From Planctomycetaceae bacterium (GTDB lineage: Bacteria; Planctomycetota; Phycisphaerae; Phycisphaerales; UBA5793), in NCBI GenBank assembly GCA_040255465.1, contig JBDZVA010000002.1:346373-410372 (forward strand): a DNA stretch of 64,000 bases, written 5' to 3'. Of the stretch, positions 21,150 to 42,010 are shown piece after piece. How positions within the stretch are numbered: the first letter of the stretch is position 1; the number at the start of each line of letters is the position of its first letter. Below the pieces are notes generated by a model. That model saw only the letters and a list, made by a program, of their open reading frames with translations. It was not told the origin of the DNA and searched no databases. A program made the position numbers and the translations under genes.

Positions 21150-22631
21150 ATGACTACGGTGCGTGACCGGTTTATCGGTACGTCGACCAAGCCCATGTTT
21201 CTCGCGGCTCTGCTGCTCACTGGTGCAACCCAGGCGGCCCCGCCGTGCGGTGACTGGGAACTGACTGCCACTCCCAACGTTGGCGACAGCGTCACCCGGC
21301 TGACCGCCGTCACCGCGCTCTCCCCCAGCGATGCCTGGGCGGTCGGACTCTGGCGCAACACATCCGGTGTCTTCGGCCCGCTGGCCATGCGCTGGAACGG
21401 GACGACGTGGAGCCTGAAGGACCTGCCCGATACCTCCCAACTGGGAGCGCAGCCCGAGACGAACGGTGTTGAGGCAGCTTCCAACGGCGATGTCTGGGTC
21501 GTCGGCAAAGTCTTCACCGGGTATCCAACCGACCAACTCCCCCTCCTCCTTCGCTGGCGAGGCAACAGCTGGGACTACGTCAACACCATGACGCTGCGCC
21601 CTCAGACGGTGTACCCCTTCGGCCCCCGCGGCGGCATCCTCTACGAAGTCGATGCACTCGCCCCCAATGACATCTGGGCCGTGGGACTGGCCTCCGGCTA
21701 CGGCGACGGGGGAGCAACAACCGTGCCCCTCGCCGCACATTGGAACGGCTCCACGTGGACCGATGTGGAAGTGCCGCGCATCGCGAACCGACATCACGAG
21801 TTGAGCGATCTCGTCGCGATCTCGCCCGATGACGTCTGGGCGGTGGGGGATTATCGAAATGTCGCCGGGGCCTTTCATGGAGTCACGTATCACTGGGACG
21901 GTAGTTCGTGGTCCCATGTCGACAGTCCGATCGAGCAGATGATCGGAGACACCGGCCTGGACGATGTCGCGGCCGCCGGACCCGATGATGTGTGGGCCCT
22001 GGGCGGAGGAAGCCAGGAGGGCGTTGTCCTGATGCACTGGAACGGCTCGCGGTGGAGCCTCATGCCGCCACCACCCAACTCCGGCGGCTCGATTGCCGCC
22101 GTCGGTCCCAATGACCTCTGGGTGTCAGGCTGGAATGGCTACTGGCACTGGGATGGCAACAGTTGGACCGAAGTACCGGCCGAGGTCCCGGGCGCGACTT
22201 ACGTTATCCGCAGCGGCGGCATGGAGATCCTCGGAGAGTGCAGCCTCTGGTGCGTGGGTTTCTGGACCCTGCCAGACGGCACCACCAGCTTCAGCCTGGC
22301 GGAAAAACTGGCGCCTGCCAATTCGCTGCGCCTGCAGGCTTCGCGCTGGGTCGAAGGATCGCTTGGCGATGCCGAGGTGTTCGGAGCAACGCCGGGTCAG
22401 TCCGTCGCGTTCATCTACAGCAAACGTGGATTGGGCAGGACGTACCTCCGGCAGTTGGATGTGACGATCGATCTGTCCAATCCGCTGCTGGCGGGCACCA
22501 GAAGAGCAGACCCGACTGGCCATGCACTCTTCCGCACGCGGGTTCCCTTGGGTACGCGGGGAAGACACGTCTGGATGCAGGCCGCGGAGTTCCGCCGCAC
22601 GAGCAATGTCGTCGAGCAGGTCATCGAGTAA
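21150..22631 (+). CDS. Secreted six-repeat beta-propeller-like protein
   Basis: Signal-like N-terminus (MFLAALLLTGATQA). Six repeats share the pattern D(A/V/I/L)W(A/V)(V/L/S)G ... (R/H)W(N/D/R)G(T/S/N)xW(S/T/D): DAWAVG..RWNGTTWS, DVWVVG..RWRGNSWD, DIWAVG..HWNGSTWT, DVWAVG..HWDGSSWS, DVWALG..HWNGSRWS, DLWVSG..HWDGNSWT. The start is chosen at 21150; the ORF is open from 20949. Confidence 0.7.
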   Translation: MTTVRDRFIGTSTKPMFLAALLLTGATQAAPPCGDWELTATPNVGDSVTRLTAVTALSPSDAWAVGLWRNTSGVFGPLAMRWNGTTWSLKDLPDTSQLGAQPETNGVEAASNGDVWVVGKVFTGYPTDQLPLLLRWRGNSWDYVNTMTLRPQTVYPFGPRGGILYEVDALAPNDIWAVGLASGYGDGGATTVPLAAHWNGSTWTDVEVPRIANRHHELSDLVAISPDDVWAVGDYRNVAGAFHGVTYHWDGSSWSHVDSPIEQMIGDTGLDDVAAAGPDDVWALGGGSQEGVVLMHWNGSRWSLMPPPPNSGGSIAAVGPNDLWVSGWNGYWHWDGNSWTEVPAEVPGATYVIRSGGMEILGECSLWCVGFWTLPDGTTSFSLAEKLAPANSLRLQASRWVEGSLGDAEVFGATPGQSVAFIYSKRGLGRTYLRQLDVTIDLSNPLLAGTRRADPTGHALFRTRVPLGTRGRHVWMQAAEFRRTSNVVEQVIE

Positions 22632-23354
22632 TCTCCAACTCATCAATGCGCCGGCGCGAGACGCACGATGCGGCGGGAATCCGCACGATACCTGCTGTAG
22701 ATCAAGCACGCAACGCCTGTCGCCATCGACGCGGTGTCGAGACGGGTGGGCTGCGCCGATTAATTGTCTATCTCCCGCATTTCCATCCAATCCCATGCGT
22801 TTCCTCGTGCTTTCTCCGTGTTCTCTGCGACTCTGTGGTGAATCTCTTCTTCGATTCGCACAACCGCGCACCCTCTCAATCGCATCCCGTGCGCCGACTT
22901 TTTGAAAACGCAAAAAAGTTGAGCAAAACTCAGAATCACCCCCCTCAGAAAAATGAAAATCGACGAAAATTCCTGATTCGTCCCGCACAGAGGCGCTCAT
23001 TCACACAAACGCGCGCCGCAGCGCACCACGGCGCTCGAAAATCGCGCACAGAAGCGCTCCGGCGCGCATGAAAAGTTCCCGACCTGGTGCGCCTTCGTGT
23101 TGGCACGCAAATTGCGTTGCACATTTTTCATCGAACCGCGTTCCCGCCGCGCCACGCGGCACAAATCTTGCACAGCTGCCCTCAACTCACTCCGGCGTCG
23201 CGCGAGCACAACGCGGTTTTGCGTCATTGCCGGCGGTCGCCGCGCACAGCCATGCACGAATCAGGTTAATGGTGGACCCCTGTTTTTGCCGTGCCCGGCA
23301 TAGGATTGAACACCCGGTGGCCGCTGGCGCCATCGCCTCTGCGAGGACCGCATC

Positions 23355-24626
23355 ATGCTCTGGCAACCCGCTCTGCCCCTCAAGTACCTCGAATTGTCCG
23401 ACGACCAGCTCGCCGAGGCGATTCGCGCCCGCCGGGCTGAACTGGGTGACAAAGTCGTCATCCTCGGCCACCACTACCAGCAGGACGAGGTCGTCCAGCA
23501 CGCCGACTTCCTCGGCGACTCGTTCAAACTCTCCCAACTCGCCGCCGAAAAGGTCAAAGAAGTCGGGGCGAAGTACGTTGTCTTCTGCGGCGTCCACTTC
23601 ATGGCCGAGAGCGCCGACATCCTCACCCCCGATGATGTCGTCGTCATCCTCCCCGATCTCTCGGCCGGTTGCTCGATGGCGGACATGGCCGACTACGACC
23701 AGACCGTCCAGGCGTGGGCCGAGATTCACGAAGCACTCGACGAGACCAAGGGATCGGCGACGCGCGTTATCCCCATCACCTACATGAACAGCACCGCCGC
23801 CATCAAGGCCTTCGTCGGCGAGCACGGCGGGGCGGTCTGCACGAGCAGCAACGCCGGCCGCGTCTTCGAGTGGGCCCTCAGAGGTGGCGACAAGCCGCTC
23901 AAGAAGGGCGAGGTGGTGAAGATCCTCTTCCTGCCCGACCAGCACCTCGGCCGCAACACCGCCAAGGCCGCGGGCTTCGTGACCGAAGTGGATGCCGCGG
24001 CGACCGGCAGGAAGCCGCAGACCGCGCTGTGGGATTCCAAGCAGGAGTCGGGCGGCCTGTCGGCCCAGGCGATTCGCGATGCGACCATCCTGCTGTGGAA
24101 GGGGCATTGCAGCGTTCACAAACTCTACCGCCCCGAGCACGTGCCCGAGATGCGAAAGAAGCACAAGGGCGTGACGGTGCTCGTCCACCCCGAAGTGTGC
24201 CAGGAGGTGGTCGATCTCGCGGACCTGTCAGGTTCGACGGAGTTCATCATCAAGACCATCGACGCAGCCGAGAAGGGCAGCAAGTGGGCCGTGGCGACGG
24301 AGACGCATCTCGTCAACCGCATCGCCCAGACCGCGAAGAAGCGGGGCGTTCACGTCGAAATGCTCAGCGGCTGTCAGTGCCTGTGCACGACGATGTATCG
24401 CATCGATCAGCAGCACCTGCTCTGGGTGCTCGACAATCTCGCCGAGGGCAAGGTCGTGAATCAGATCAAGGTTCATGCCGACGCGAAGAAGTGGGCGATG
24501 GTCGCGCTGAATCGCATGCTGGATCTCCTCGGGCAGGGATCAGTGAAAGCCGCGAAGAGCGAGTCTTCGAAACCGCGCCGCGGATCGAAGCGCAGCGCGA
24601 AAGCAGAGATGACACTGACGGATTGA
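23355..24626 (+). CDS. nadA: Quinolinate synthase (long form)
   Basis: ILGHHYQ, VVFCGVHFMAESA and other collinear NadA segments, with conserved Cys positions (LSAGCSMAD, KGHCSVH, GCQCLCTTM) for the 4Fe-4S cluster. Confidence 0.9.
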   Translation: MLWQPALPLKYLELSDDQLAEAIRARRAELGDKVVILGHHYQQDEVVQHADFLGDSFKLSQLAAEKVKEVGAKYVVFCGVHFMAESADILTPDDVVVILPDLSAGCSMADMADYDQTVQAWAEIHEALDETKGSATRVIPITYMNSTAAIKAFVGEHGGAVCTSSNAGRVFEWALRGGDKPLKKGEVVKILFLPDQHLGRNTAKAAGFVTEVDAAATGRKPQTALWDSKQESGGLSAQAIRDATILLWKGHCSVHKLYRPEHVPEMRKKHKGVTVLVHPEVCQEVVDLADLSGSTEFIIKTIDAAEKGSKWAVATETHLVNRIAQTAKKRGVHVEMLSGCQCLCTTMYRIDQQHLLWVLDNLAEGKVVNQIKVHADAKKWAMVALNRMLDLLGQGSVKAAKSESSKPRRGSKRSAKAEMTLTD

Positions 24627-24646
24627 TGGTCTGGTTGATTGGGGTG

Positions 24647-24746
24647 CCACACAGCACTTCGCTTCGAATGCGGTGTGCAGACGAGCAAGTGCTGTCATCT
24701 TGTCTTGCACATCCGGCACACAGCACCCGAGGCGGGATGCGGTGTG
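24647..24746 (+). repeat. Two tandem related hairpins in the nadA-fpg spacer
   Basis: 24647-24677 reads CCACACAGCAC-N12-GCGGTGTG and 24716-24746 reads GCACACAGCAC-N12-GCGGTGTG. The outer arms GGGTGCCACAC (24642-24652) and GTGTGGCACCC (24742-24752) are also complementary. Confidence 0.4.
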
Positions 24747-24779
24747 GCACCCAGACCTTGACATGTTCACTGCGATCAA

Positions 24780-25688
24780 ATGCCCGAACTGCCTGACATC
24801 CTCGTCTACCTCGATGCGCTGCGGCATCACGTCGTTGGCAAGCGACTGAACGATGTGGTTGTTCGTGGGCCCGCTCTGCTTCGGTCGGTCGATCCGCCAC
24901 TTGATGCCTTTGATGCCCATGTTCTGACCGTTGTCTCGCGCATCGGCAAACGCATCGTGCTCCATTTCGATTCCGGCGCAGCGCTTGTCATTCACCTGAT
25001 GATTGCCGGTCGCCTGCTCTGGAGAGATGAACGTGTGAGGCCGACCGGGCGCAATGACCTTGCGGCGTTCCGATTCGAGAATGGCACACTGATGCTCACT
25101 GAAGCCGGAACCAAGCACCGCGCGACGCTCACTGCGGTTGGCAGCACAGCAGAACTTGCCCGGATCAATCGCGGTGGCCTCGACCTTCTCACCTGCACGC
25201 GCGACGAGTTGACCACACGATTGCACGGTGAGAATCGCACACTGAAGCGAGCCTTGACTGACCCGCGCATCATCGATGGCGTTGGCAATTCGTACTCAGA
25301 CGAGATCCTTCATGCAGCTCAGCTCTCGCCATTCGTTCGCACCGCCGATATGAGTGAAGCACAGATCGCCGCACTGCACGAGGCGGCGCTGAGCACACTC
25401 AATCACTGGTCGAAAGCGTTGCACGATCAGTTCGACGGCGGCCGAAAGTTCCCCGGTCGCGGCCAGATCACTGCGTTCCGCAACGGCTTTGCCGTACACG
25501 GCCGCTTCAACAAACCGTGTCCGCGCTGCGGCTGCCCGGTTCAGCGTGTCGTCTATGCCGAGAATGAGATGAACTACTGCGCCAAGTGTCAGACGAACGG
25601 CAAGGTCCTGGCCGACCGCTCGCTCTCGCGACTGCTCCGCGACGACTGGCCCAGGTCGATTGAAGAACTCGAAGAGCAGAGTGAGTAA
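24780..25688 (+). CDS. Fpg/Nei-family DNA glycosylase/AP lyase
   Basis: N-terminal MPELPD (catalytic Pro2/Glu3), a central H2TH-like region (GNSYSDEILHAAQLSP) and a C-terminal zinc finger CPRCGCPV...YCAKCQ. Confidence 0.85.
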   Translation: MPELPDILVYLDALRHHVVGKRLNDVVVRGPALLRSVDPPLDAFDAHVLTVVSRIGKRIVLHFDSGAALVIHLMIAGRLLWRDERVRPTGRNDLAAFRFENGTLMLTEAGTKHRATLTAVGSTAELARINRGGLDLLTCTRDELTTRLHGENRTLKRALTDPRIIDGVGNSYSDEILHAAQLSPFVRTADMSEAQIAALHEAALSTLNHWSKALHDQFDGGRKFPGRGQITAFRNGFAVHGRFNKPCPRCGCPVQRVVYAENEMNYCAKCQTNGKVLADRSLSRLLRDDWPRSIEELEEQSE

Positions 25689-25716
25689 GCAGCCACGCTG
25701 AACGATACGATGTCGC

Positions 25717-26454
25717 GTGATGAACCTCGCAACCAGTTTCGATCTCGACGGCTTCGAGTCCGGCTCGACAGTTCATCTCATGGCTGCGGGGGTCTGTCTG
25801 CTTGCGACGCTGGCGTCGAGTTGGCTCGGTCTGCGGTGGCGGCAGCGGCGGCCGAGGTTCGAACGTCAACTCCGCCTCAGTTGGACGGTGTTTATCATCG
25901 TCACGCAACTGTTCACGACGATTTGGTGGCTGCTGCCGCAGAACTTCAGTTGGCGTGTCAGCCTGCCGCTGCACATCTGCGATATCGTGGCGGTGCTCGC
26001 GGCCGTCGCGTTGCTGGCGACGACGCGATGGGTGTGGTCGGTGCTTTACTTCTGGGGCATCGGGCTGAGCATCTTCGCCTTCATCATGCCCTCACTGACG
26101 CATGGTCCAGGTCACGTCGAGTTCTACCTCTTCTGGCTGACGCATCTCCAGATCATCGGCACCACGGCCTACCTTGTCACCGTGATGCGCTACCGGCCCA
26201 CCACACACGACTGGATGATCGCCGAGTTGCTCATCACGCTCTACACGATTGCGATCTTTCCGCTCGATGCGGCGTTCGATCTGAACTACGGCTACATTGG
26301 GCCGATTGACTCGCCGGCGCGGATCGTCGGCGCCTGGCCGGGACGCGTGCTGAATATGTATCTCATGCAGTTCGTGCTGTTTGGGGTACTGCTATTGCCG
26401 TGGCTGCTGACGCGACGCCGGAGTGCTGTCCAAGTCGCGGGCCGATCGAATTGA
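25717..26454 (+). CDS. Integral membrane protein, YwaF/TIGR02206-like
   Basis: A polytopic hydrophobic protein. The LPLHICDI motif in the third helix and the overall size resemble the YwaF family. The assignment is from memory of the motif only. Confidence 0.55.
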   Translation: MMNLATSFDLDGFESGSTVHLMAAGVCLLATLASSWLGLRWRQRRPRFERQLRLSWTVFIIVTQLFTTIWWLLPQNFSWRVSLPLHICDIVAVLAAVALLATTRWVWSVLYFWGIGLSIFAFIMPSLTHGPGHVEFYLFWLTHLQIIGTTAYLVTVMRYRPTTHDWMIAELLITLYTIAIFPLDAAFDLNYGYIGPIDSPARIVGAWPGRVLNMYLMQFVLFGVLLLPWLLTRRRSAVQVAGRSN

Positions 26455-31429: not shown

Positions 31430-31634
31430 CCATGCGAGGCTTAATACGCGGCAGGTGCTGGCGAGGCTGGGGATCGCCGCAGTGCTGTGGTTCGGCGGGG
31501 GCGTGGTGACGTCGCGGTTGCTGGGAATGGCGGCGGTGGATTCGGTCGCGTTCCTGCTGTGTCTTGGTGTGGTGTTCCTGCTGGGGTCGGTTTTCTTTGC
31601 CGCGGTGTATGGGCCCAGGGGCGAATCCGAATAA
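31422..31634 (+). CDS. Hypothetical 70-aa membrane protein
   Basis: Overlaps the previous ORF by 8 nt. Two hydrophobic helices (LGIAAVLWFGGGVV; VAFLLCLGVVFLLGSVFFAAV). Confidence 0.4.
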   Translation: MSSHARLNTRQVLARLGIAAVLWFGGGVVTSRLLGMAAVDSVAFLLCLGVVFLLGSVFFAAVYGPRGESE

Positions 31635-31644
31635 GGGAGACGTG

Positions 31645-32217
31645 ATGATCCCGGTGTTTATCGTTGGCTTCGTCGTGGTGCTCATTCCCGTGGTGTATTT
31701 CTTCGCGATCTACAATCGCCTGGTGAGCCTGCGTCAAATCGTGCGGGAGAGTTGGTCGGACGTCGACGTGGAACTAAAGCGGCGCTATGACTTGATTCCA
31801 AACCTCGTCAACACGGTGAGGGGTTACGCCGCACATGAAAGGGAGACGCTTGAGAAGGTAATCGCGTTGCGCAACGCCGCGGAAGCCAACCATGGAGACG
31901 TAGCGTCGCAGGCAAGCGACGAAAACAGACTAATGATGGGGGTAAAGCAACTCTTCGCGGTCGTTGAGAACTACCCAGAACTCAAGGCCGATGCTCACTT
32001 TCTCCAATTGCAGTACGAACTTGCCCTTACAGAGGACCGCATCGCAGCCTCTCGGCGATTCTTTAACGCGAATACACGCGAGATGCGGCAGCTATGCGAG
32101 ACCGTGCCGTCCAGCCTAGTGGCGTCGATTGCCAACATCCGACCTGGAACTTACTTCGAACTGAGCAGCGAAGCGGAGCGGGTGACGCCGCGGGTGGAGA
32201 TGGGGACGGCTCAATAG
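31645..32217 (+). CDS. LemA family protein (copy 1)
   Basis: An N-terminal TM helix is followed by YNRLVSLRQIVRESWSDVDVELKRRYDLIPNLVNTV and ENYPELKA, the LemA signature. It uses more A/T-ending codons than its neighbours. It starts 10 nt after the previous ORF. Confidence 0.85.
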   Translation: MIPVFIVGFVVVLIPVVYFFAIYNRLVSLRQIVRESWSDVDVELKRRYDLIPNLVNTVRGYAAHERETLEKVIALRNAAEANHGDVASQASDENRLMMGVKQLFAVVENYPELKADAHFLQLQYELALTEDRIAASRRFFNANTREMRQLCETVPSSLVASIANIRPGTYFELSSEAERVTPRVEMGTAQ

Positions 32218-33344
32218 GTGTTGTGCTTGCGAATTGCGGGCCGAGTATCTCGCAGCCGCGTGAACATGCTTGCGATGCGATCGCCGGTCCGGCCATCCCC
32301 GTATGGGTGGTTGCCGGACACGTCGTGATCCAGTACCTGCTGGATTGCAGTTTCGACGTCGTTTTGAGAGGCGCTCGCCGCGTCGATAGCGTTTGATGCT
32401 CGTTCGCGCCCTGCTTGACGAGGCCCGACGTTGACGACGCGTAGTCCAAGTGCCGCGGCTTCAATGAGGCCGGCGGATGAGTTGCCGATGAGAAGACTCG
32501 CTCGTTTAAGCAGGCCGATGAACTGCTCGCGAGGCAGGTGGGGGAGCATTCGGCGATCGCCGATGGCGCGGAGGATGGCCGGGCGGCCGGGGTCGTGGTT
32601 GGGGGCGCCGATGGCGAAGTTGCCTTCGAAGGCCGCATCCGTGGCAACAAGGATCGCCGACATCGTGTTGAACTCGATCGCGTCTTCGAGGCCGGTCGGG
32701 TGGTGGAGGACGATCGCAAAGTCGCGCGATGGGTCGAGATGCAGGGCGCGGAGTTGATCGTCGGTGAGCGGTTCGAACGATGCGAGGTCGTCGACGGCGG
32801 GGGAGCCGACGAGATGAATGGAATCTTCGCGTTCGCCCATTCTCCGGATGCGTTCAGCACTTTGCTCGGTGGCCGGGAAGTGGATGTGGGCGAGCTTGGT
32901 GATGGCGTGACGCATCGCTTCGTCGGCGACGCCTTCGGCCCGGTCGCCGCCGTGGACGTGGGCGACGAGGAAGCCGGCGACGCTGGCGGCGGAGGCGGCG
33001 GCGAAGGCTTCGATGCGGTCGCCGAGGACAAGCACGACATCGGGTTTGAGTTCATCGAAGGCTTGCGCGAGACCAGTGATGCCTCGACCGAGTGCGATGG
33101 CGTCGGCGGTGCGGCCGGTCTCGCCGGGCTGCTGCATGGAGATCTCTGCGGCGATGTCGAACTCGGCGGCGACTTCATTGCGCGTATTAACTTCGGGTAG
33201 CAGGTGGGCGCCTGTGACGATTACTTGCAGTTGAAGCGATGAGGTCGCGGCGATGGCGCGCATAATTGGGCGGAGCAGGCCATAGTCGGCGCGGCAGCCG
33301 GTGACGACGGCGATGGTGCACGAAGTAGTCGACTCGGTCATCAC
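32211..33344 (-). CDS. neuC: UDP-N-acetylglucosamine 2-epimerase (hydrolysing), NeuC-type
   Basis: VVTGCRADYGLLRPIM, VLGDRIE and HVHGGDRAEGVADEAMRHAITKLAHIHF match the NeuC/LegG-type hydrolysing epimerase. The start overlaps the neuB stop (ATGA). Confidence 0.85.
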   Translation of the reverse strand: MMTESTTSCTIAVVTGCRADYGLLRPIMRAIAATSSLQLQVIVTGAHLLPEVNTRNEVAAEFDIAAEISMQQPGETGRTADAIALGRGITGLAQAFDELKPDVVLVLGDRIEAFAAASAASVAGFLVAHVHGGDRAEGVADEAMRHAITKLAHIHFPATEQSAERIRRMGEREDSIHLVGSPAVDDLASFEPLTDDQLRALHLDPSRDFAIVLHHPTGLEDAIEFNTMSAILVATDAAFEGNFAIGAPNHDPGRPAILRAIGDRRMLPHLPREQFIGLLKRASLLIGNSSAGLIEAAALGLRVVNVGPRQAGRERASNAIDAASASQNDVETAIQQVLDHDVSGNHPYGDGRTGDRIASMFTRLRDTRPAIRKHNTY

Positions 33345-34387
33345 GCACCACCTTCGAGGTCATCAGTGGTGAGCGGTGTGTCGGCGGCGACGCTTCGTGC
33401 GAGTTTGCGGCCGGGCAGCTGAGTGAGCATTGCCGGGGGCAGGCCGGTGCCGGGGCGTTTGATGGTGAGGTCGTCGCGCGTGAGCGTCGCGCCGGCTTTC
33501 AATTCGCGCGTGATTGTGACACTCTGACGGCTGACGGTTCGCACATCCTGCTCGATCGCCTGCACCATGACGCGCGGCTCACCAAGCATCGATCGGGCGC
33601 GGCGGGCCTGCCCGACATACCGCGCAAACTGGCCGGGGTCGAGGGAAGCGGCGTGATCGGGGCCGCGCGCGGTGCGATCCCACGTGAGATGTTTCTCGAG
33701 CACGGTGGCGCCGCATGCGACGGCGAGAGCGCCGGTGTCGATCGAGGTGGTGTGGTCGGAGTAGCCGATGGGGATATCGCGGCCGTCGGCGGCAGTTGCC
33801 GCGAGTCGCGCGAGAGGGCCGATGCCGGCCAGTTGTGCGTTTTCATCGGGTGTGGGATAGGCGCTCACGCAGTGCAGCACGATGTGGCCGAATCGGGCGA
33901 GGGCGGCGGCGATTTCATCTGCGTTGGCGGCGCCGGTGCTGAGAATGAGCGGCTTGCTTGCGGCGGCGAGCGCTTCGAGCAGCGGGGTGTTGATGATGTC
34001 AGGCGAGGCGGTCTTGAGGGCATCCCACTGCAGTTCGGTGGCGAGGTTGGTGTGTTCGAGACTGAAGATCGAGACGATCGCGTGGAGATCGAGGGAGTGG
34101 GCGTAGCGGACGATCTCGGCCATGGCGTCGCGATTGAGCTGCAGGCCGCGAAGCATTTCGATGGGGTCGGTTTCACCAGCCTGCTGCTGGTAGGTCGCAA
34201 GGCGGCGGGCGCTGCTCATGAGCGATTCGGCTTCGAAGTACTGCACCTTTATGGCGTCGGCGCCGGCTTTGTGTGCCGCCTCGATGAGTTGCAGGGCGCG
34301 CTGGGTGGAGCCGTCGTGGTTGACACCGATCTCGGCGATGATGTAGGGCGGCTGGTCGCGGCCGATGGGGCGATCACCGATGCGCAT
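33341..34387 (-). CDS. neuB: N-acetylneuraminate (nonulosonate) synthase
   Basis: PYIIAEIGVNHDGS, GADAIKVQ, HCVSAYPTP and YSDHT, followed by a C-terminal SAF/antifreeze-like domain (LTRDDLTIKRPGTGL). Confidence 0.9.
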   Translation of the reverse strand: MRIGDRPIGRDQPPYIIAEIGVNHDGSTQRALQLIEAAHKAGADAIKVQYFEAESLMSSARRLATYQQQAGETDPIEMLRGLQLNRDAMAEIVRYAHSLDLHAIVSIFSLEHTNLATELQWDALKTASPDIINTPLLEALAAASKPLILSTGAANADEIAAALARFGHIVLHCVSAYPTPDENAQLAGIGPLARLAATAADGRDIPIGYSDHTTSIDTGALAVACGATVLEKHLTWDRTARGPDHAASLDPGQFARYVGQARRARSMLGEPRVMVQAIEQDVRTVSRQSVTITRELKAGATLTRDDLTIKRPGTGLPPAMLTQLPGRKLARSVAADTPLTTDDLEGGA

Positions 34388-35123
34388 AGCGTGTGGTCTC
34401 GGAAGCGCCGTCGCCGGCTGTCTCGGTGAGCATCAGTTGGGCGAGGAGGAAGTCCATGCGATTGTCGACATCGACGACTTCGCCGGCCTGGTTGTGTATG
34501 CCGCGCCGATCGGCGCCGAGAAAGGCGTGCGGCTGACCTTCGATCACGTGGTACAGATTCTCGCGGCGCACGGCGATCACGCCGCCATCGGGGATGAAGA
34601 GCGGTGGGAGATCCTGCCGTCGGTAGACGGTGTTGGCGACGTAGGGTTCAACGCGACCGGCCTCGTCGATCTTCACTTCCCAGTAGGGATGGTACTTGCC
34701 GACGGGCGCGTAGCTCTGCACGGAATCAGCGCCGGACTCGATGAGCAGCCGGACGGCGCGATCGATCAGGCCGAATGGTCGAATGGGCACATTGGCATAG
34801 AGGATGACGGCGAGGGGGGCTGCGTCGTCGAGCAAGGCGTGGCGGGCGGCGGCGTCGACGGTCGCGTGATCGCTGGCCAGTTCTGCGGGGCGGTCGATGA
34901 CTTCCACGCCTTCGTTTCGCGCCGCTTGAGCGACGTGCGGGCAATCCGTGGAAACCAGAACTCGGGTGACTGTGGAGGCGGCGCGGGTGTGGGCGATGGA
35001 GTGAACGACCATGGGGCGACCGGCGAGGAGCATGGCATTCTTGCCGGGCAGACCCTTGCTGCCGGCGCGGCCGAGGATGACGGCGGTGGCTTGCGGTTTG
35101 GTGTTGGACCGATGGTTGGTCAT
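34374..35123 (-). CDS. neuA: Acylneuraminate cytidylyltransferase (CMP-sialic acid synthetase)
   Basis: AVILGRAGSKGLPGKNAMLLAGRPMV is the CMP-NeuAc/KDO synthetase N-terminal motif. Size and remaining motifs are consistent. It overlaps neuB by 14 nt. Confidence 0.85.
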   Translation of the reverse strand: MTNHRSNTKPQATAVILGRAGSKGLPGKNAMLLAGRPMVVHSIAHTRAASTVTRVLVSTDCPHVAQAARNEGVEVIDRPAELASDHATVDAAARHALLDDAAPLAVILYANVPIRPFGLIDRAVRLLIESGADSVQSYAPVGKYHPYWEVKIDEAGRVEPYVANTVYRRQDLPPLFIPDGGVIAVRRENLYHVIEGQPHAFLGADRRGIHNQAGEVVDVDNRMDFLLAQLMLTETAGDGASETTRYAHR

Positions 35124-35139: not shown

Positions 35140-38100
35140 TCAGACGGCGCCGAGTTCGAGGATCAACGTGGGCGTGTCCCGGTCATCGATCTCAGAAACT
35201 CGCGTTACGCCTGCCTGCAGTGATGCCCACACTTCGGCGAGAGATTGGGAGTCGAGATCGACGATTGCCTGATCGTCGGGCTGGAGCCAGGCATGGTGGC
35301 CGACGAACGCCGCACCATTTGCCCGCACCTGCAGAATGCGACGGTTCATTTCATCGAGGGCGGCGGGCGGCGGGTCGAGCTGGATCGAGTTGTCGATGGC
35401 GGAACTGGGAACGGGATCGACCATCGCAGCGCCGGCGTAGTGCATCCATCGATCGATGAAGTTGCGCTGTTCATCCAGCGTGGCCTCGCAGCGCATCAGT
35501 CGCGGCACGATCCATGGGGTGACGAGCGCATTGGGGTTGCCTGCCCGCGCGCTGCGGCCGTTGATGAGGGAATCGACGCGCTGCCGCAGTTCGTCAAATC
35601 GATCGATCCCCATGACGGTCTGGTACGTCGGCGCCGTCTCGCCATGAACTTCAACGCTGATGACGTCGATGGGCAGGAGGAGCACACGGGTCGGATCACC
35701 AAACGCATCGGGCAGATCAGTGCGGACATGAATCGCAGCGCAGCCAACCTCTCGAGCGAATCGGAGGATTTCTTCGAATTGCGGATGGAGCAGGGGGTCG
35801 CCCCGGCCGCCGAAAGTGATCGCGAGATCCGAACGGGAGACGGCTTCGCGCAGGAATCGCCTTGCTACGTCGATGTCGATGTCCACTTGCGGATTGATCG
35901 CCGGAGACCAGAACGGCTCAGTCGAGCGGCGCGTGGTGAGTTCGATCTCGATCTGTTGAGGGAGGCCGTCGGCGGCCGTGGGGATGGCGTTCAGTGCGGC
36001 GAGAAGTTCCAGACCGCAAGGGTCCTTGCCAATCGACTCAAACGCGCGGGCGATGGTAGATGTGTCGGCAATGTACCTGCCGATGTGATTGCGGATTTCT
36101 GCGGGCAGTTTGACGCAGGCATCCTTGCTGGTTGGATCGAGTTGCGGCAGGCTGGGGATGTAGGAGAGCATCGAGCCGACGGTGAACTGGCGCACGCGCT
36201 GGGACATTTCGCGCATGAGCGACGCTTCGATCAGCACGCCGCAGAGGCCCGGCGGCGCCTGGGTGAAGACGAGCCGGTGGATTTCGGGATGTTCGAGGTA
36301 GCGGGCGATGAGCGCCCCGCAGCCGGTGGCGTCTGACCAGTCTACAAGCGGCCAGTCGGGGCCGACAACAACGACCGCGTCGAGATGCAGTTCGTCCATC
36401 GCCGCCGCCATGTGGGAGGGGGCGATGATCTCATCAAAGACGGTCATGCCGCCGATGCCGCCGCGCCACGACCAGTCACTCCAGCGACGGGCGGCGGCGA
36501 CGGCGCGGTGGGCGTCGTCGAAGATGGGACCGACAACTTCGCGAACCACAAGCGGACGGTCGATGCGGGACTGATCAAGGAACGACTGAATGTCACTGCC
36601 GCGCGGGACGAGGAGCACGATCGACTCGATGCGCCGGCAGCGGCCGAGGCGTTCGAGCGTGGCCTGCAGAGGCCAGCTGCTCGATCGGTTGTTCATCGGG
36701 CGATCGATGAGCAGTCCGCTTCGTTGCGGGTCGATGGCGATCATTGCGGCGATGCGGCGCGGCCCGGTGGCGGTCGATCCGGTGTCAGCCGACTGCGAGT
36801 GTTCCGTCTTTGCCGCCGCGCGCTCGCTGATGCGGGTATTGACTGACTCGCCGCTAAGAACGCGCAGGGCTTCGTTGAGGATTTGTTGTGTTTCGAGGCA
36901 GGCCTCGGCGAGCCAGCGAACGTTGGTCTGGTCGCGCTCCAGTTGCGCCTTCTGGCGAGCGAGTGGTTCGAGCGTCTCGGAGAGATCGAGTTTTCGATCG
37001 GCTTTCAGTCGCTTGAAGACGCCGAGTTGATTGACGAGGTTGACCAGATCGTGCAGGACGGCGAGGCGATCGACTTCTTTTTGGTTGGCCCGTATCTTCT
37101 GGAACAGGCGATTCATCGCCGCTCCATCGTGCTGATGCTCGAGCATCTCGCCGAGAATGCGATCCGTGTCACGGCTGACCTTTTCGAGACGCTGCACGTC
37201 GCTTCGCACGGACTCGAGTCGGCGGCTGGTCTGGCGCAGGCGATCGGCGTCGAGTCGCCGACGCTCGGTTGCGAACTCCGGCAGGGGAGTTGACGCGGCC
37301 TCGGCGAGCACTTCGTCGAGCGGTCGGACGATGGTGTGTTGCTTGGCGACGCCTCCGCCGGCCGCGTCGATGATGGTCTGCGGTGCGTTGCAGAAGTCGC
37401 GTTCGAACTGCGTGAGGTAGGTGCTCATCTGCTCATCGACGAGCATCGGTCGGCCACTCTGGCTGCGGGCGGGGCGCAGGTTCCGCTTCATGCGAGCCAC
37501 GCGCGACCATTCCATCATGTCGATCGTGTTGAAGGCATTGATCTCCGGCGCCCACTGGTCGTGAATCGCAGCGCCGGGGCCGTAGTAGAGGTTGTCCGTG
37601 AAGCCGAGATCCTGGCCGACCAGGACGATCGGATCGCAGCCGAGGTATTGTGCGAGATAGAAGCTCAAGTGGGCCACGGTCGAGCCGGCGGGGACGGAAC
37701 CCATTTCGCGCGCGAGTGGGCCGAGGAGTTTGTCGAGGAAGTTGTTGGCGACGCAGCGAATCGGGCCGGGATAGGACTCGACGACGATGCGGTTTACCTT
37801 GGCCTCGCAGACGAGAGTGATGTCGCGCAACTCTTCGGGATCGAGGCCGTCGTAGAACTGGCGACTGATTTCGTGGTAATCCAACGCCGTGACGAAGTGC
37901 GGCCGGATGCCGCGCCGCAGCAGCGGGCGCAGGCAGGTCTGCACGGCGATGATCACGACGCGCTCGCGCAGCGTTGGATCGGCCAGGAGTTCGTAGTGGC
38001 GCGACAGGCTAGGGCCGGCGGAGAGGAGCAGGGCGGTTCGACCGCTGGCGATGTTCTTGAGCAGCGCGATGCCTTCGCCGGCGGCGTAGTGATCCAGGTT

Positions 38101-38847
38101 CAGGCTCAGGTTGCGGCAGGTCGTGGATGAATGCACGAGCGTCGTGAGCATCGTGGTGCGGATGTTTGAGACCAGGTCGGCGAACATCTTGCTGAATCTG
38201 GCTGCCGCTTCACCCAGTCGGGCGCGGCTGGGGAGATGAGCTTCGATCGTGGTGCCTTGCGCCACGATGCCTTCGGCTCCCGCGAGCTGGACGGAGATGC
38301 CGGCGCGATCTTCGGGCTCGTCGGCGATGACGAGATTCGTCGCGTTGATCCACTCGGAGTGGTCAACTTGTTCAAGCACAGAGCGAAGCAATGCGACATC
38401 GGGTTCGAAGACAATGATCAGCCCTGTCTTGCGCATGGCCTGGGCGATTCGCTGGATGTGATAGCCCATGGCAAAGCCGAGCACGACGACGGTCGCATGC
38501 TGGACGATGTCGATCCCTTTTGCGAACCGATCCGCCTCATCGAGCGGTCGGTGTCGGCTGCACAATTGTGATCCGTGAAGCGAGAGAGCCGGAACCCCCT
38601 GCGGGGTCGGTGCGAACGCGCATAGCGTGGATGGGGCGATGGTTCGGATTCGCTCCACAAGCCGGGCGTTGTGCGGAGCGAGAGCCTTGAGATTGGCTTC
38701 GAGGATTGCTGTACTCACTCCACCCGCCACTTCGCTTGAGGGTCGTTTCCGGTTTCGGCATCGGTCTTGCTGTGGTATTATCGGAATCAAATCGCCGGAG
38801 ACTTGAGCCATGGATCTGCCAAGCGGCTCGCCGCTGATCGTGAACAC
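35140..38847 (-). CDS. Multidomain Maf-like (DUF115/MptE-like) putative nonulosonic-acid transferase fused to nucleotidyltransferase-like and radical-SAM-like (Cys-less) modules
   Basis: The N-terminal third (ILEANLKALAPHNARL..., ALLLSAGPSLS, IIAVQTCLRPLLRRGIRPHFVTALDYHE, VLVGQDLGF) matches the motility-accessory-factor/MptE-like pattern. A coiled-coil linker follows. Residues about 720-930 look like a GT-A/cytidylyltransferase-like fold (RRIAAMIAID..., IVLLVPRG). The C-terminus has radical-SAM-barrel-like strands (ITFGGRGDPLLHP, AIHVRTDL, VISVEVHG), but TTRRSTEPFWSPA occupies the place of CxxxCxxC. The start (38847 or 38811) is uncertain. Confidence 0.7.
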   Translation of the reverse strand: MFTISGEPLGRSMAQVSGDLIPIIPQQDRCRNRKRPSSEVAGGVSTAILEANLKALAPHNARLVERIRTIAPSTLCAFAPTPQGVPALSLHGSQLCSRHRPLDEADRFAKGIDIVQHATVVVLGFAMGYHIQRIAQAMRKTGLIIVFEPDVALLRSVLEQVDHSEWINATNLVIADEPEDRAGISVQLAGAEGIVAQGTTIEAHLPSRARLGEAAARFSKMFADLVSNIRTTMLTTLVHSSTTCRNLSLNLDHYAAGEGIALLKNIASGRTALLLSAGPSLSRHYELLADPTLRERVVIIAVQTCLRPLLRRGIRPHFVTALDYHEISRQFYDGLDPEELRDITLVCEAKVNRIVVESYPGPIRCVANNFLDKLLGPLAREMGSVPAGSTVAHLSFYLAQYLGCDPIVLVGQDLGFTDNLYYGPGAAIHDQWAPEINAFNTIDMMEWSRVARMKRNLRPARSQSGRPMLVDEQMSTYLTQFERDFCNAPQTIIDAAGGGVAKQHTIVRPLDEVLAEAASTPLPEFATERRRLDADRLRQTSRRLESVRSDVQRLEKVSRDTDRILGEMLEHQHDGAAMNRLFQKIRANQKEVDRLAVLHDLVNLVNQLGVFKRLKADRKLDLSETLEPLARQKAQLERDQTNVRWLAEACLETQQILNEALRVLSGESVNTRISERAAAKTEHSQSADTGSTATGPRRIAAMIAIDPQRSGLLIDRPMNNRSSSWPLQATLERLGRCRRIESIVLLVPRGSDIQSFLDQSRIDRPLVVREVVGPIFDDAHRAVAAARRWSDWSWRGGIGGMTVFDEIIAPSHMAAAMDELHLDAVVVVGPDWPLVDWSDATGCGALIARYLEHPEIHRLVFTQAPPGLCGVLIEASLMREMSQRVRQFTVGSMLSYIPSLPQLDPTSKDACVKLPAEIRNHIGRYIADTSTIARAFESIGKDPCGLELLAALNAIPTAADGLPQQIEIELTTRRSTEPFWSPAINPQVDIDIDVARRFLREAVSRSDLAITFGGRGDPLLHPQFEEILRFAREVGCAAIHVRTDLPDAFGDPTRVLLLPIDVISVEVHGETAPTYQTVMGIDRFDELRQRVDSLINGRSARAGNPNALVTPWIVPRLMRCEATLDEQRNFIDRWMHYAGAAMVDPVPSSAIDNSIQLDPPPAALDEMNRRILQVRANGAAFVGHHAWLQPDDQAIVDLDSQSLAEVWASLQAGVTRVSEIDDRDTPTLILELGAV

Positions 38848-39406
38848 GCTGGAAAGCCCCTGGTTTCTGGCGGCGCTGCTGCTGATTGCGGGGGGAATCG
38901 CGTGGTTCGGGTTCCGCTATCGGTATCCGCGCCGGGCCCCGATGGTGGCCGGAGTGTTGATCGCTGCGGCCCTGGGGCTGGTAGCGCTGGCGGCACTGGT
39001 GGAGACCACGGGTGAACGACTCGCACGAGAAACCCGCTCGCTGGTGGAAGCGGCGGTGGCCGGGGATGCGGTGGCGTTTGGCGGCCTGCTTGAGGATGGT
39101 CTCGTGCTGCGCGTGGGCCGGGACAAGTCATCGCTGGACAAGGCCGATCTGCTCGATCGTGTCAAGGGGATCAAAGCGCTCGTGCAGTCCAACAACATTC
39201 GCGACACGCGCGGAGTGCGCACCGGAGCCGACACAGGCGAATCGGTGCTGGCGCAGACGACCACCACGGCCATGGGCCAGCCGACACCCAATGAGTGGCG
39301 ATTTCGCTGGCGCAAGGATGCGGCCGGCCGGTGGAGGGTGACGGAAATGATCTGGGAGAAGTGGGGATTCAACGACGTTCCCAGCGCGGACATGCTGCGC
39401 AACTGA
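38810..39406 (+). CDS. Hypothetical membrane-anchored NTF2/SnoaL-like protein
   Basis: Two N-terminal TM helices (WFLAALLLIAGGIAWFGF; VAGVLIAAALGLVALAALV) are followed by about 120 aa ending WRFRWRKDAAGRWRVTEM, typical of NTF2-like/DUF4440 folds. The 5' end overlaps the divergent Maf-like ORF as listed. Confidence 0.5.
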   Translation: MDLPSGSPLIVNTLESPWFLAALLLIAGGIAWFGFRYRYPRRAPMVAGVLIAAALGLVALAALVETTGERLARETRSLVEAAVAGDAVAFGGLLEDGLVLRVGRDKSSLDKADLLDRVKGIKALVQSNNIRDTRGVRTGADTGESVLAQTTTTAMGQPTPNEWRFRWRKDAAGRWRVTEMIWEKWGFNDVPSADMLRN

Positions 39407-39418
39407 GGGCGGCTGGCG

Positions 39419-42010
39419 CTACTTCTCGGGGGTTTCTTCCTGAAGAGGATCCGGAGCGAGGGGATCCGGCGTGTTGAAGTAGGCGCGGGCGTCCTGGGCG
39501 ATGGCGCGGAGTTGCGGATTGTCGCTTCGAAGCGAGGCTTCGAGCACCACGTCCGCGTCGCTGGCAGAGCGGGCTGCGATCCAGGCCATCTGAACGAGTG
39601 GATCGGTCGAGCGTCGAGCCACGGCCTCGAACTGGTCCAGCACAGCGATGCGACTGGTGCTCGTGTCCTTTTGGAAGGGCAGCGACAGGATGGCCCATGC
39701 GGCCGTCTTCGCATCGAGTTCGGGCCAGAGTTCGATCAGGCGGTTCATGCCGGCGTCCATCGCGGCCATTAGTTCGGGGTTGGCGGCGGGATCGATCATG
39801 CGAGTGAGACGGGCGTGCAGCAGGGCGCCGATCTTTGAGATTGTCTGAACAGTCGTTGCGGAGTCCTGAGCGGAGAGCTGACCGGCGAGATCCGGGGTGG
39901 CGCCGTCGAGCAGCCCGGGCCACGCAGAAACCTGCATTGGTTTGGATTGGCGGACGATGCTCCACGATTGGGGTCGGAATCTGCCGTCCGACCCGACGTC
40001 GTAATCGAGCATGGCCTGGAACTGCACACTCAGTGGGCGCAGGGCGAAATTCGGAATCAGCAGACCGAAGAGCGTGTGATCGATGGAGATCGGCACGGTC
40101 ATCTCTTCGGCGGGCATGAGCATGAGGCGGCGCTCAAGATCGAGCGTGAGCGGGCGGGTGCCGGTGGGCAGTCGCTTGCCGCCAATCTGGAAGATCGGAA
40201 ACACGGCGAGCCGGCTGGGAAGGATCTTTTCGGCGTCGATCGCGACGGGCCAGGGACCGTCGTTACGCACCGTCACATCGAACGTGATCGCGTCGAGCGG
40301 TTCGGTCCGTTCGGTGCGGGGGGCGATCGAGAGGCTGAAGTACCGCTCTGGTCGCATGAGCAGGTCGCTGAGCGTTTGCGGGAAGCGATCGAGTTCCTTT
40401 TCGACGGCGCGAGCCTGGCGCGGGGCAGGCATCGGCTTTCCCGTCAGTTTCTCGTACTTCCACTTGCACAGGATCCCCACGAGTTTGCCCGGCTGACCCT
40501 GGTAGATTTCTCCAAGCAATCGCGTGGCGTCGGCTGTGCGACCGAGTTCGAGTTGAGCGGTTGCGACACCCAGATCGCTCAGCGGATCGACGGCCTGGAG
40601 GGACTGAAGGCCGGCGATGGCGGCTTGCGCATCGCCCTGACGCAGGCTGAGCCAGGAACGAAGGCGCTGCAGTTCGGCGGGATCGTGGTTGCCGCTCCTG
40701 TCGAGTTCGAGGACGTCGGCCGCGGCCTGCTCGACATGCCGATTGACCCACAACCGCGTCCACGCCCGATCCGCAATGATGCGGCGCTGGTCAGCGTTCA
40801 TCGCATTGATGGCTGAGACGGGCAGCGAAGTGCGATCGGTGCTCTTCAACTCCTGGAGTTGCGAATCCCAGATGCGTTCGAGGGACGCCAGAGAGCTTTC
40901 GACATCGTTTTCCGATTCAGCCGCCATGGCGAGCAGCAGGCGGGTGATCTGCAGATGAATTGAGAGGTCCACGGAGACGTCTTCAAACGTCGGCATCTCG
41001 CCGATCTGCGGGGTCGGGAGACCCTCATCGGCAGCCTTCTTCAGGGCTGCCTGTTGCTGGGCAATCCACTCCTGCTGTCGCCGCCGCCTCTCGAAACGGT
41101 CAAATGAGTCCTGCCGTTTTTTGATGAGATCGAGGCCGTCTCGCGGGCCCGACTCGGCGCAACGAAGGTAGGCGTAGTCGGCGAAGAGATCGTCGGGGAT
41201 GCTGGATTGATGTCGAGCGGCTTGAGCGCTCAGCCCTTCGATCAGGTCGGCGGCCCCGCGCTGGAAGCCGGATTCCTGAACCACCGCGATCAGATCGTTC
41301 AGCGCGGCTTCGTTGACGGGATCGGCCTTGACCAGCTGCATCATGGCGCGAACGAGCAGTTCGACCTTGGCGGTTTGACGATCGGTTTCCAGGGCGTTGA
41401 GGGCTGCGGCGTCGAGGTTCACCGGGTTGCGTTTGAGTGCTTCCTCGAGGTAGGAGGAGGCCACGCTGGCGCGCCCCTGCTCCTCAGCCAGGATCGCGGC
41501 GCGGTAGGCGACGTGGCTGAGAACTTCAGGCATGAGACGAGCGCCGGCGGCTGAGCGCAGAAGCCGCTCACAGAGATCGAGGCGCTCAGTGACGCTCTGA
41601 CGCTCGTCGATGGCGCGGCTGATGACGTTTAACTGGGCCGTGGCGTTGTCGGGTTCGAGGCGGAGCAGATTCCGTTCCGCCTGGATGATCATGGGCAGGC
41701 TGGAATCGAGAACCGCGCCGGCGGCGGCCAGTCTGCGGTGGATTTCGACGTCATCCGGAGCGAGTTCGGCGGCCCACTCCAGAATGCCTACGGCCGCCCG
41801 GTATCCCGCCTGCGGATCCGCCTCGGGCCCGGGGCGGGCGAACCGAAGGGTGTGCTGGACCAGTCTCCGGGCGATGAGTTGATCAAGGGAATAGGTCTCC
41901 GCCGTGGCGACGGCCGCCGCGTCTGATGAGACGGAGCCCGGGCTGGCGGTGGCGACGAGGGTGCCGAGGGAGAGCAGGGCGACGAGCAGTCGAATCATGG
42001 TGTCTTTCAC
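39419..42010 (-). CDS. Large secreted helical-repeat (TPR-like) protein
   Basis: Signal peptide (MIRLLVALLSLGTLVATASP). The N-terminal two-thirds are Ala/Leu-rich helical repeats, and the C-terminal third looks beta-rich. No catalytic motif was recognised. Confidence 0.6.
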   Translation of the reverse strand: MKDTMIRLLVALLSLGTLVATASPGSVSSDAAAVATAETYSLDQLIARRLVQHTLRFARPGPEADPQAGYRAAVGILEWAAELAPDDVEIHRRLAAAGAVLDSSLPMIIQAERNLLRLEPDNATAQLNVISRAIDERQSVTERLDLCERLLRSAAGARLMPEVLSHVAYRAAILAEEQGRASVASSYLEEALKRNPVNLDAAALNALETDRQTAKVELLVRAMMQLVKADPVNEAALNDLIAVVQESGFQRGAADLIEGLSAQAARHQSSIPDDLFADYAYLRCAESGPRDGLDLIKKRQDSFDRFERRRRQQEWIAQQQAALKKAADEGLPTPQIGEMPTFEDVSVDLSIHLQITRLLLAMAAESENDVESSLASLERIWDSQLQELKSTDRTSLPVSAINAMNADQRRIIADRAWTRLWVNRHVEQAAADVLELDRSGNHDPAELQRLRSWLSLRQGDAQAAIAGLQSLQAVDPLSDLGVATAQLELGRTADATRLLGEIYQGQPGKLVGILCKWKYEKLTGKPMPAPRQARAVEKELDRFPQTLSDLLMRPERYFSLSIAPRTERTEPLDAITFDVTVRNDGPWPVAIDAEKILPSRLAVFPIFQIGGKRLPTGTRPLTLDLERRLMLMPAEEMTVPISIDHTLFGLLIPNFALRPLSVQFQAMLDYDVGSDGRFRPQSWSIVRQSKPMQVSAWPGLLDGATPDLAGQLSAQDSATTVQTISKIGALLHARLTRMIDPAANPELMAAMDAGMNRLIELWPELDAKTAAWAILSLPFQKDTSTSRIAVLDQFEAVARRSTDPLVQMAWIAARSASDADVVLEASLRSDNPQLRAIAQDARAYFNTPDPLAPDPLQEETPEK

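Follow-up and report, generated by a model that had tools for sequence, protein, structure and literature searches.

What is a protein glycosyltransferase of the Maf type doing with the remains of a radical S-adenosylmethionine (SAM) enzyme in the same polypeptide? This question is raised by a gene, called the Maf gene below, at positions 35140-38847 on the minus strand of a 64,000-nucleotide stretch from a Planctomycetaceae bacterium (assembly GCA_040255465.1, contig JBDZVA010000002.1, positions 346,373 to 410,372); the whole stretch is referred to as the window and coordinates without a locus name are those of the window. It is one real gene encoding a two-unit protein. Residues ~40-680 are a complete Maf-type glycosyltransferase and they are followed by a C-terminal unit of about 540 amino acids (aa), residues ~694-1235, which has three parts, namely, a domain with the MobA/cytidylyltransferase fold, a radical-SAM-type barrel, and a remnant of a SPASM/twitch subdomain. 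An earlier sequence-only reading of this DNA had proposed three modules; all the folds were confirmed, but the protein is better seen as two units because the nucleotidyltransferase-like and radical-SAM-like parts make up one pre-existing unit, which relatives encode as a gene of its own and which, in them, is collinear with the NCBIfam family TIGR04321. Judged by its sequence the protein is not a radical SAM enzyme and its C-terminal unit would not be able to do radical chemistry, because the cysteine triad that defines these enzymes is absent. The reading that we prefer, at a probability of roughly 55%, is that of a protein O-sialyltransferase with a non-radical accessory partner module.

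The maximal open reading frame (ORF) starts with GTG and runs uninterrupted across 35140-38847 for 1235 aa and a stop codon, with nothing that splits it, and the motifs that had been quoted from it earlier were all found in the translation (ALLLSAGPSLS, IRPHFVTALDYHE, VLVGQDLGF, ITFGGRGDPLLHP, AIHVRTDL, VISVEVHG, and TTRRSTEPFWSPA). Its GC content at the three codon positions is 0.68/0.46/0.76, as in real coding frames of this 63%-GC window. The length of 1235 aa given in the sequence-only reading holds for the maximal ORF but probably not for the product. Codons 1-39 overlap a gene at 38810-39406 that is read divergently, and in the closest homologues, such as P0001 with 98% identity and the N-terminus MAGGVSTAIL, the first residue corresponds to V40; the true start is therefore probably the GTG at 38730 (V40) and the product would be 1196 aa long. 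Residue numbers given here are those of the 1235-aa ORF and in the 1196-aa form they are lower by 39. Full-length homologues of about 1200 aa were found down to 41% identity, and the AlphaFold2 model of the full-length protein is confident, with a predicted local distance difference test (pLDDT) score of 89.8 and a predicted template modelling (pTM) score of 0.85, the latter being a global value that does not cover contacts between domains. Compared to the closest relative, the ratio of nonsynonymous to synonymous substitution rates (dN/dS) was 0.12-0.14 in the Maf unit, 0.21 in the nucleotidyltransferase-like domain, 0.20 in the radical-SAM-like barrel, and 0.15 in the SPASM-like tail, and all parts of the protein thus appear to be under purifying selection.

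The assignment of the first unit to the Maf family, as had been read from the sequence, is borne out by Pfam, by the NCBIfam PseD model, and by structure. The catalytic MptE-like/MAF_flag10 domain is at residues 248-418 (37594-38106, minus strand), where PF01973 (MptE-like/DUF115) matches with an E-value of 1.4e-33 and 116.5 bits against a cutoff of 34.6, that is, within the region of about 230-480 in which such a match had been predicted. It is preceded by the Maf N-terminal domain (residues ~40-239, 38131-38730, minus strand), which is delimited by a weak match to Maf_flag10_N at residues 118-170, by the PseD model, and by the alignment to the Magnetospirillum magneticum Maf structure 5mu5. 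The PseD model (NF050051) aligns over residues 124-605 with 53.7 bits, far under its cutoff of 670, and matches 41/41 members of the family; PseD therefore seems to be a relative and not an orthologue of the Maf unit. When the family profile was compared to the 5mu5 sequence the E-value was 7.9e-6, and when Foldseek was run with the full-length model 5mu5 was the top match (E 2.1e-18, 735 aligned columns, template modelling (TM) score on the target 0.49). The SAGPS motif, the invariant D323, and the GQDLGF motif are all inside the catalytic domain. D323, which is D284 in the 1196-aa form and lies in the motif PHFVTALDYHE, is invariant in 71 sequences and aligns with Asp324 of the M. magneticum Maf, five residues past the position aligned to F319 of 5mu5. 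Asp324 is critical for activity and belongs to the catalytic residues named for that enzyme (10.1101/2020.06.03.131540). Because the signature residues, including this invariant aspartate, are kept, the Maf unit is apparently catalytically intact. The catalytic domain is followed by the Maf C-terminal helical bundle (residues ~534-664, 36856-37248, minus strand). A coiled coil had been noted after the Maf part, and long helices are indeed there, at 495-625 of the 1196-aa model, but they are not a separate segment; they lie within the 735-column match to 5mu5 and the Maf genes of the split clade, in which the two units are two genes, stop just past them, so that they are the Maf's own C-terminal helical domain. 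Next is a flexible linker at residues ~681-693 (36769-36807, minus strand), in frame and the sole internal stretch with pLDDT below 50 in the full-length model.

Direct searches of the C-terminal half with Pfam (residues 700-1235) and against the sequences of the Protein Data Bank (PDB; residues 699-1235) gave nothing usable, and its folds were recognized from a model and from alignments. For residues 690-1235 the AlphaFold2 model, which used 66 homologues, had a pLDDT of 91.4 and a pTM of 0.92. Foldseek against the PDB with this model returned the radical SAM enzymes DesII (E 3.7e-9), BlsE, CteB, SuiB, SkfB, viperin, MoaA, and BtrN, with E-values from 4e-9 to 1e-5 for DesII, BlsE, CteB, SuiB, and viperin, and it also returned the Leptospira cytidylyltransferase 6oew (E 4e-6, TM score on the target 0.68-0.70) and human ISPD (4cvh). 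The nucleotidyltransferase-like domain, residues ~694-954 (35986-36768, minus strand), which had been read as such from the sequence, is thus confirmed by its fold and has invariant columns of its own. Neither PF02348 nor PF12804, the cytidylyltransferase- and MobA-like Pfam families, matches this protein, and PF12804 (NTP_transf_3) scores about 25 bits in close standalone relatives, near the gathering cutoff (GA) of 27. An hhalign comparison of the domain to a NeuA profile gave a probability of 0.3% with one short plausible stretch. Its invariant motifs are family-specific (WRGG.GGM..(F/Y)DE, DWP, and QAPPGL). The D-W-P motif occupies the usual D-x-P position, at which D-x-P is expected in canonical nucleotidyltransferases, whereas the N-terminal nucleoside triphosphate (NTP)-binding signature is altered and reads D-P-x-R-x-G-L-(L/G)-x-x-R compared to G-R-A-G-S-K-G-L-P-G-K-N in the neuA of the window. 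The barrel, residues ~959-1149 (35401-35973, minus strand), is a radical-SAM-type partial barrel that lacks the ligands of an iron-sulfur (Fe-S) cluster. PF04055 (Radical_SAM) does not match this protein even at an E-value of 10; in standalone relatives it scores 19-30 bits against a GA of 29.5, and weak precomputed matches exist in many homologues. A profile of the last ~290 residues aligns by sequence to BtrN and BlsE, with GGRGDPLLHP in place of the GGE motif, GGRGDPLL sitting on the GGE of BtrN, and the tail sitting on the twitch subdomain of BtrN. The tail, residues ~1150-1235 (35143-35400, minus strand), is what remains of a SPASM/twitch subdomain; it is degenerate and, like the barrel, is without its cysteines, as seen from the tail alignment, the BtrN alignment, and the presence of PF13186 in standalone relatives. 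In the C-terminal half about 22 columns do not vary among 67 sequences and, because of these columns and the dN/dS of 0.15-0.21, the C-terminal unit does not appear to be decaying.

The barrel had been described earlier as one without CxxxCxxC, and both the Foldseek matches and the BtrN alignment agree with this. The former cluster loop, ELTTRRSTEPFWSP at residues 969-982 (35902-35943, minus strand), aligns with EVNSQCNRTCWYCP of BtrN in such a way that R974, P978, and S981 sit exactly on the three cluster cysteines. The site therefore reads R..P..S in this protein and R, P/G, and S/T family-wide. No cysteine triad was found at these positions in 71 aligned homologues, in 85 genomic loci of relatives, or in more distant standalone relatives, from which it would follow that the radical SAM cluster was lost family-wide and that its absence here is not due to a misalignment. 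A CxxxCxxC in one relative (L061) was rejected as a chance match, as it is located in helix 1/strand 2, outside the cluster loop. The last 276 residues of this protein hold just two cysteines, neither of them in a conserved column. At the SPASM site the partner genes of the split clade keep four invariant tail cysteines, C-x12-G-x4-C ... CxxC, in 12/12 loci, and in the tail alignment all four are replaced in this protein and throughout the ~68 fused loci. With regard to cofactors the protein is thus not of the SPASM-domain kind either. P0275, a 1224-aa protein from a Phycisphaeraceae metagenome-assembled genome (MAG; MEX2671825.1), is a fused Maf and partner with a Cys-rich SPASM tail (…CRQLGKRMSILSDGRRALCDQDW…PLCANCSAWHRP), and it looks like an intermediate between the split, Cys-bearing and the fused, Cys-less forms. 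The loss of the clusters thus looks stepwise by this comparison, the radical SAM site being gone in every member examined and the SPASM site in most fused forms. An MqnC/CofH-like radical SAM gene is present elsewhere in the window (7292-8695, plus strand; PF04055 E 6.6e-17 and CofH_C) and provides an internal contrast to the degenerate domain; in L004 the Maf gene has one like it at a distance of 6-8 kb.

Among species-representative genomes at least 404 were found to encode a relative, and nearly all of the best 80 are MAGs assigned to Phycisphaerae, Phycisphaerales or Planctomycetota. The closest among the genomes listed belongs to the Phycisphaerales group UBA5793 and is 80% identical in the C-terminal half. 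Conservation of the fusion is wide: 68/85 loci have the single ORF, about 12 loci have two clean adjacent genes, and a few have apparent local frameshifts or runs of N. In the two-gene loci the cut is exactly at the low-confidence linker. Among more distant relatives, the Maf gene is directly upstream of the partner in L088 and L089; the gene order in L088 is Maf, partner, neuA, neuB, and neuC, and in L089 the Maf gene overlaps the partner by 4 bp. In L086:3297-8960 (33.7% GC) the partner is between two Maf paralogues of 588 and 568 aa, with HD and DUF8042 genes before the group and a PglD-like acetyltransferase gene after it, and the arrangement in L087 is the same. Fusion, adjacency, and sandwiching between Mafs are strong genomic evidence suggesting that the two units work together. 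There are many copies of this protein in public databases but they are annotated just as "MptE-like protein" or "DUF115 domain-containing protein". The earlier statement that no described Maf with such an architecture was known stands as far as the literature that we searched on Maf and radical SAM, spiro-SPASM, and Phycisphaerae nonulosonic acid is concerned, as no paper was found there that describes a Maf with a radical SAM fold or the pairing of a Maf with a spiro-SPASM-like protein; a paper on Treponema flagella held nothing on glycosylation genes.

The C-terminal unit descends from a protein combining a nucleotidyltransferase with radical SAM/SPASM, of a lineage that may be called spiro-SPASM-like. 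TIGR04321, "spiro-SPASM", is matched by 40/41 family members, with a best E-value of 2.6e-20, and in several members the collinear match starts inside the nucleotidyltransferase-like domain and reaches the C-terminus; one such match pairs residues 813-1202 with positions 105-486 of the 510 in the model. This protein itself scores 19.8 bits against a cutoff of 250, over model positions 215-307 alone, and the standalone relatives score 96-153 bits, also below the cutoff, over positions 87-506 of 510. By score, then, the protein would not be a member of TIGR04321, yet it is clearly related to that family as far as these alignments go. The standalone partner gene in the Phycisphaeraceae subclade encodes ~545-585 aa, and its products have TIGR04321 scores of 96-137 bits; in standalone relatives PF13186 (SPASM) scores above GA and NTP_transf_3 and Radical_SAM are near threshold, and one of these proteins is labelled "spiro-SPASM protein" (JGI) and several "SPASM domain-containing protein" (NCBI). 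The order of the parts in them, nucleotidyltransferase-like, radical-SAM-like, and SPASM tail, is that of TIGR04321, but TIGR04321 is a spirochaete family whereas the relatives here are from Planctomycetota, are below the cutoff, and in the fused form are without SPASM cysteines. Homologue searches starting from the Cys-rich tail of a standalone relative gave more relatives below the cutoff and no true spirochaete member of TIGR04321, and a tblastn search of plasmids with the C-terminal half gave no match.

Directly downstream of the Maf gene on the same strand are neuA, neuB, and neuC, and the operon that had been proposed from the sequence is confirmed by this order and by the Pfam matches. 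The neuA gene (34374-35123, minus strand) encodes a cytidine monophosphate (CMP)-nonulosonate synthetase with the canonical GRAGSKGLPGKN loop (PF02348, E 1.5e-17), neuB (33341-34387, minus strand) a nonulosonate synthase (PF03102, E 1.9e-59, and SAF), and neuC (32211-33344, minus strand) a protein of the UDP-N-acetylglucosamine (UDP-GlcNAc) 2-epimerase family (PF02350, E 5.5e-70). Among the 85 loci neuA is downstream of the Maf gene in 81, neuB and neuC are found in about 65, and the order is the same in large contigs. A scan of the operon for promoters and terminators gave nothing above chance. At 32211-32217 the 3' ends of neuC and of the LemA-family gene that converges on it (31564-32217, plus strand) overlap by 7 bp, and no terminator-like site was found between them. 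Some split-clade loci differ in gene content: in L056:9533-11356, L057:7764-9788, L070, L073, and L076 a single ORF of 580-675 aa has matches to NeuA as well as NeuB and thus looks like a NeuA-NeuB fusion, the N-terminus being of the NeuA type in L056 (MKTLAIILARAGSKGLPGKN), while in L068:8569-10599 and L075:9921-11951 neuB was not found beside neuA and neuC and an unannotated ORF of ~676 aa follows.

From these data we infer the donor sugar, the acceptor, and the role of the C-terminal unit as follows. NeuC, NeuB, and NeuA would make a CMP-activated sugar of the sialic acid type; since there are no genes specific for legionaminic or pseudaminic acid nearby, CMP-N-acetylneuraminic acid (CMP-Neu5Ac) would be the simplest donor, and Maf enzymes that are linked to neu genes have been shown to transfer Neu5Ac (10.1101/2020.06.03.131540). 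The Maf unit would transfer this sugar to Ser/Thr of a protein acceptor, which by family precedent alone would be flagellin. The C-terminal unit would act as a dedicated partner subunit, with the task of holding or selecting a substrate that may be the acceptor polypeptide or else the CMP-sugar or nucleotide; the nearest solved relatives of its barrel include both peptide-modifying enzymes and enzymes modifying sugars or nucleotides. Such a role in substrate holding and specificity is favoured because the unit is paired obligately with a Maf, because NeuA supplies the activation, because the redox ligands are gone in the fused clade, and because there are precedents for Mafs with accessory modules. 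Modules that bind the acceptor, fused or separate, are the tetratricopeptide repeat (TPR) domain carried by Maf-1 and GlfM for Maf-2 (10.1101/2023.12.03.569772).

The Mafs of M. magneticum (5mu5) and Geobacillus kaustophilus and the Campylobacter PseD/PseE, which transfer nonulosonic acids to flagellins, have the same three-domain body as the Maf unit here, made up of N-terminal, MAF_flag10/MptE-like, and C-terminal helical domains, share the catalytic aspartate, and are likewise linked to genes for CMP-nonulosonate, which in Geobacillus are also of the neuABC type. What differs is the extra C-terminal unit of ~540 aa, never described for a Maf, the location of this gene outside any flagellar glycosylation island, and the PseD score of 54 compared to 670 bits. 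Thus, by every tested feature except the acceptor the protein is a member of the Maf/MAF_flag10 family. In Shewanella, Maf-1 with its C-terminal TPR and Maf-2 with GlfM also combine a Maf body with an accessory module that is fused in some lineages and is a separate adjacent gene in others, and the proposed logic of a partner for substrate specificity would be the same; this likeness would be an analogy in logic and not in ancestry, as the Shewanella modules are a TPR or a four-helix bundle whereas the module here is a nucleotidyltransferase fold with a dead radical SAM/SPASM part for which a binding role is predicted. With the SPASM/twitch radical SAM enzymes (BtrN, BlsE, DesII, CteB, SuiB, and anSME) the C-terminal unit shares a partial TIM-barrel, a GGE-like motif, and a beta-hairpin/helix tail at the position of the twitch/SPASM subdomain, but it has neither CxxxCxxC nor the cysteines of an auxiliary cluster. 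A precedent by name for a radical-SAM-like domain that lacks the signature and is joined to SPASM is the NCBIfam family TIGR04347, "pseudo-SAM/SPASM protein"; it is a different lineage, with weak matches in 6/41 family members (best E 6.6e-4), and we know of no connection of it to Maf.

Some observations weigh against the reading as a flagellin O-sialyltransferase with a non-catalytic partner. No flagellin-like ORF was found within 6-10 kb in the 85 loci by phmmer, for which an approximate N-terminus of E. coli FliC was the query. There are also no flagellar genes within the window, the content of which is of the housekeeping kind (SMC, methylmalonyl-CoA mutase, NadA, LpxB, and a Nuo subunit). 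In L090, a standalone relative, no Maf is encoded within 8 kb. Finally, many polar residues of the nucleotidyltransferase-like domain and the barrel are strongly conserved, which would also suit an enzyme activity of a non-radical kind that has been retained.

The first two of these observations lead to the question whether the acceptor is something other than flagellin, that is, whether the Maf sialylates another surface protein or a glycan with the C-terminal unit serving as an adaptor. The chromosomal context of the 85 loci is conserved, of the housekeeping kind, and not flagellar, and two conserved neighbours could be considered in this connection. One is the divergent gene mentioned above (38810-39406, plus strand), which encodes a membrane-anchored protein of 198 aa with two transmembrane helices, a conserved LE(N/S)PWPL N-terminus, and a DUF4440/NTF2-like domain (weak PF14534 match). 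A homologue of it is head-to-head with the Maf gene in 59/85 loci, in the fused and split clades alike, and because this pairing is conserved a functional or regulatory link between the two genes is suggested, though unproven. The other (39419-42010, minus strand) encodes a protein of 863 aa with no Pfam match, a signal-peptide-like N-terminus, and the look of helical repeats; proteins of ~800-980 aa without Pfam matches are at the same position in L001-L004, and recognisable sequence homologues are found in close relatives only. Against a non-flagellin acceptor is that the experimentally characterised Mafs, both those known to us and those in the papers cited, act on flagellins. Also, flagellin genes are often not linked to their glycosylation genes. 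We therefore consider such an acceptor rather doubtful.

The main rival explanation concerns the C-terminal unit, which could still be an enzyme of a non-radical kind; its nucleotidyltransferase-like domain or its barrel might, for example, act on the nonulosonic acid or on the CMP derivative to activate or tailor it, and the polypeptide would then couple modification to transfer. The sequence-only reading had put forward both possibilities, a single enzyme for activation, modification, and transfer or a binding module. The invariant charged residues and the kept D-x-P motif of the nucleotidyltransferase-like domain, the conserved polar residues on the strands of the barrel, and the purifying selection would all be expected of an enzyme. 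Sugar- and nucleotide-sugar-tailoring enzymes are found among the nearest solved relatives of the barrel (BtrN, BlsE, DesII, and viperin), and the 4-Cys site of the split-clade partners could hold a cluster. However, the canonical neuA gene that is present in 81/85 loci argues against the need for a second activating enzyme, and the NTP-binding signature is not conserved nor is there a relation to NeuA by hhalign beyond that short stretch. In the fused clade, moreover, the Fe-S ligands are all lost, and we know of no radical SAM fold that works catalytically without its cluster. On balance an enzymatic role is unlikely. It is very improbable that non-canonical ligands hold a [4Fe-4S] cluster in the barrel and make it an active radical SAM domain, because, although the GGE-like motif (GGxGDPLL) and the overall barrel are kept, the only two cysteines in the last 276 residues of the protein are not in conserved columns and the cluster positions are R, P/G, and S/T throughout the family. 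That the long ORF is an artefact of two or three adjacent genes joined by a frameshift would fit the relatives that truly have two genes, but the fused ORF recurs in hundreds of protein clusters and in 68 independent assemblies, which refutes it, and the in-frame linker, the confident full-length model, and the selection acting on all parts also speak against it.

Apart from this locus, the GC skew of the window flips from negative to positive near 24-25 kb (~22000-26000), where the cumulative skew has its minimum of about -1.15; replication origins show such a change of sign with a cumulative minimum.

Maf proteins are the main route by which sialic-acid-like sugars are attached to bacterial proteins, and how they choose their substrates is just being worked out with the TPR domain and GlfM. 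Because the two halves of the protein also occur as neighbouring genes elsewhere, the dead radical SAM relative joined to the Maf studied here probably represents a type of Maf partner subunit that has not been described. Next to the TPR domain and GlfM it would be a third sort of accessory module, structurally unrelated to the other two, that was derived from a radical SAM/SPASM protein, has given up its Fe-S clusters, and is under purifying selection in hundreds of Phycisphaerae species. Specialists on Maf would not expect the architecture and the evolutionary pattern, both of which are solid; what the extra unit does is put forward as a hypothesis. As a case of pseudoenzyme evolution the family allows the stepwise loss of clusters to be followed, and a specificity module that is built in could be of use in glyco-engineering, for which Mafs are being explored. 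The pattern of fusion and splitting also offers a hypothesis for the function of the unstudied "spiro-SPASM"-like proteins. Tentatively, and as a possibility somewhat short of even, we suggest that the spiro-SPASM-like lineage is an unrecognised class of Maf partner subunit, a former radical SAM enzyme that as a pseudoenzyme reads the acceptor or the CMP-sugar in protein O-sialylation and that is fused to the Maf in most Phycisphaerae and separate elsewhere; by extension, the TIGR04321 proteins of spirochaetes would be flagellin-glycosylation factors. For the Phycisphaerae themselves, the family points to protein sialylation in a major and mostly uncultured environmental lineage.

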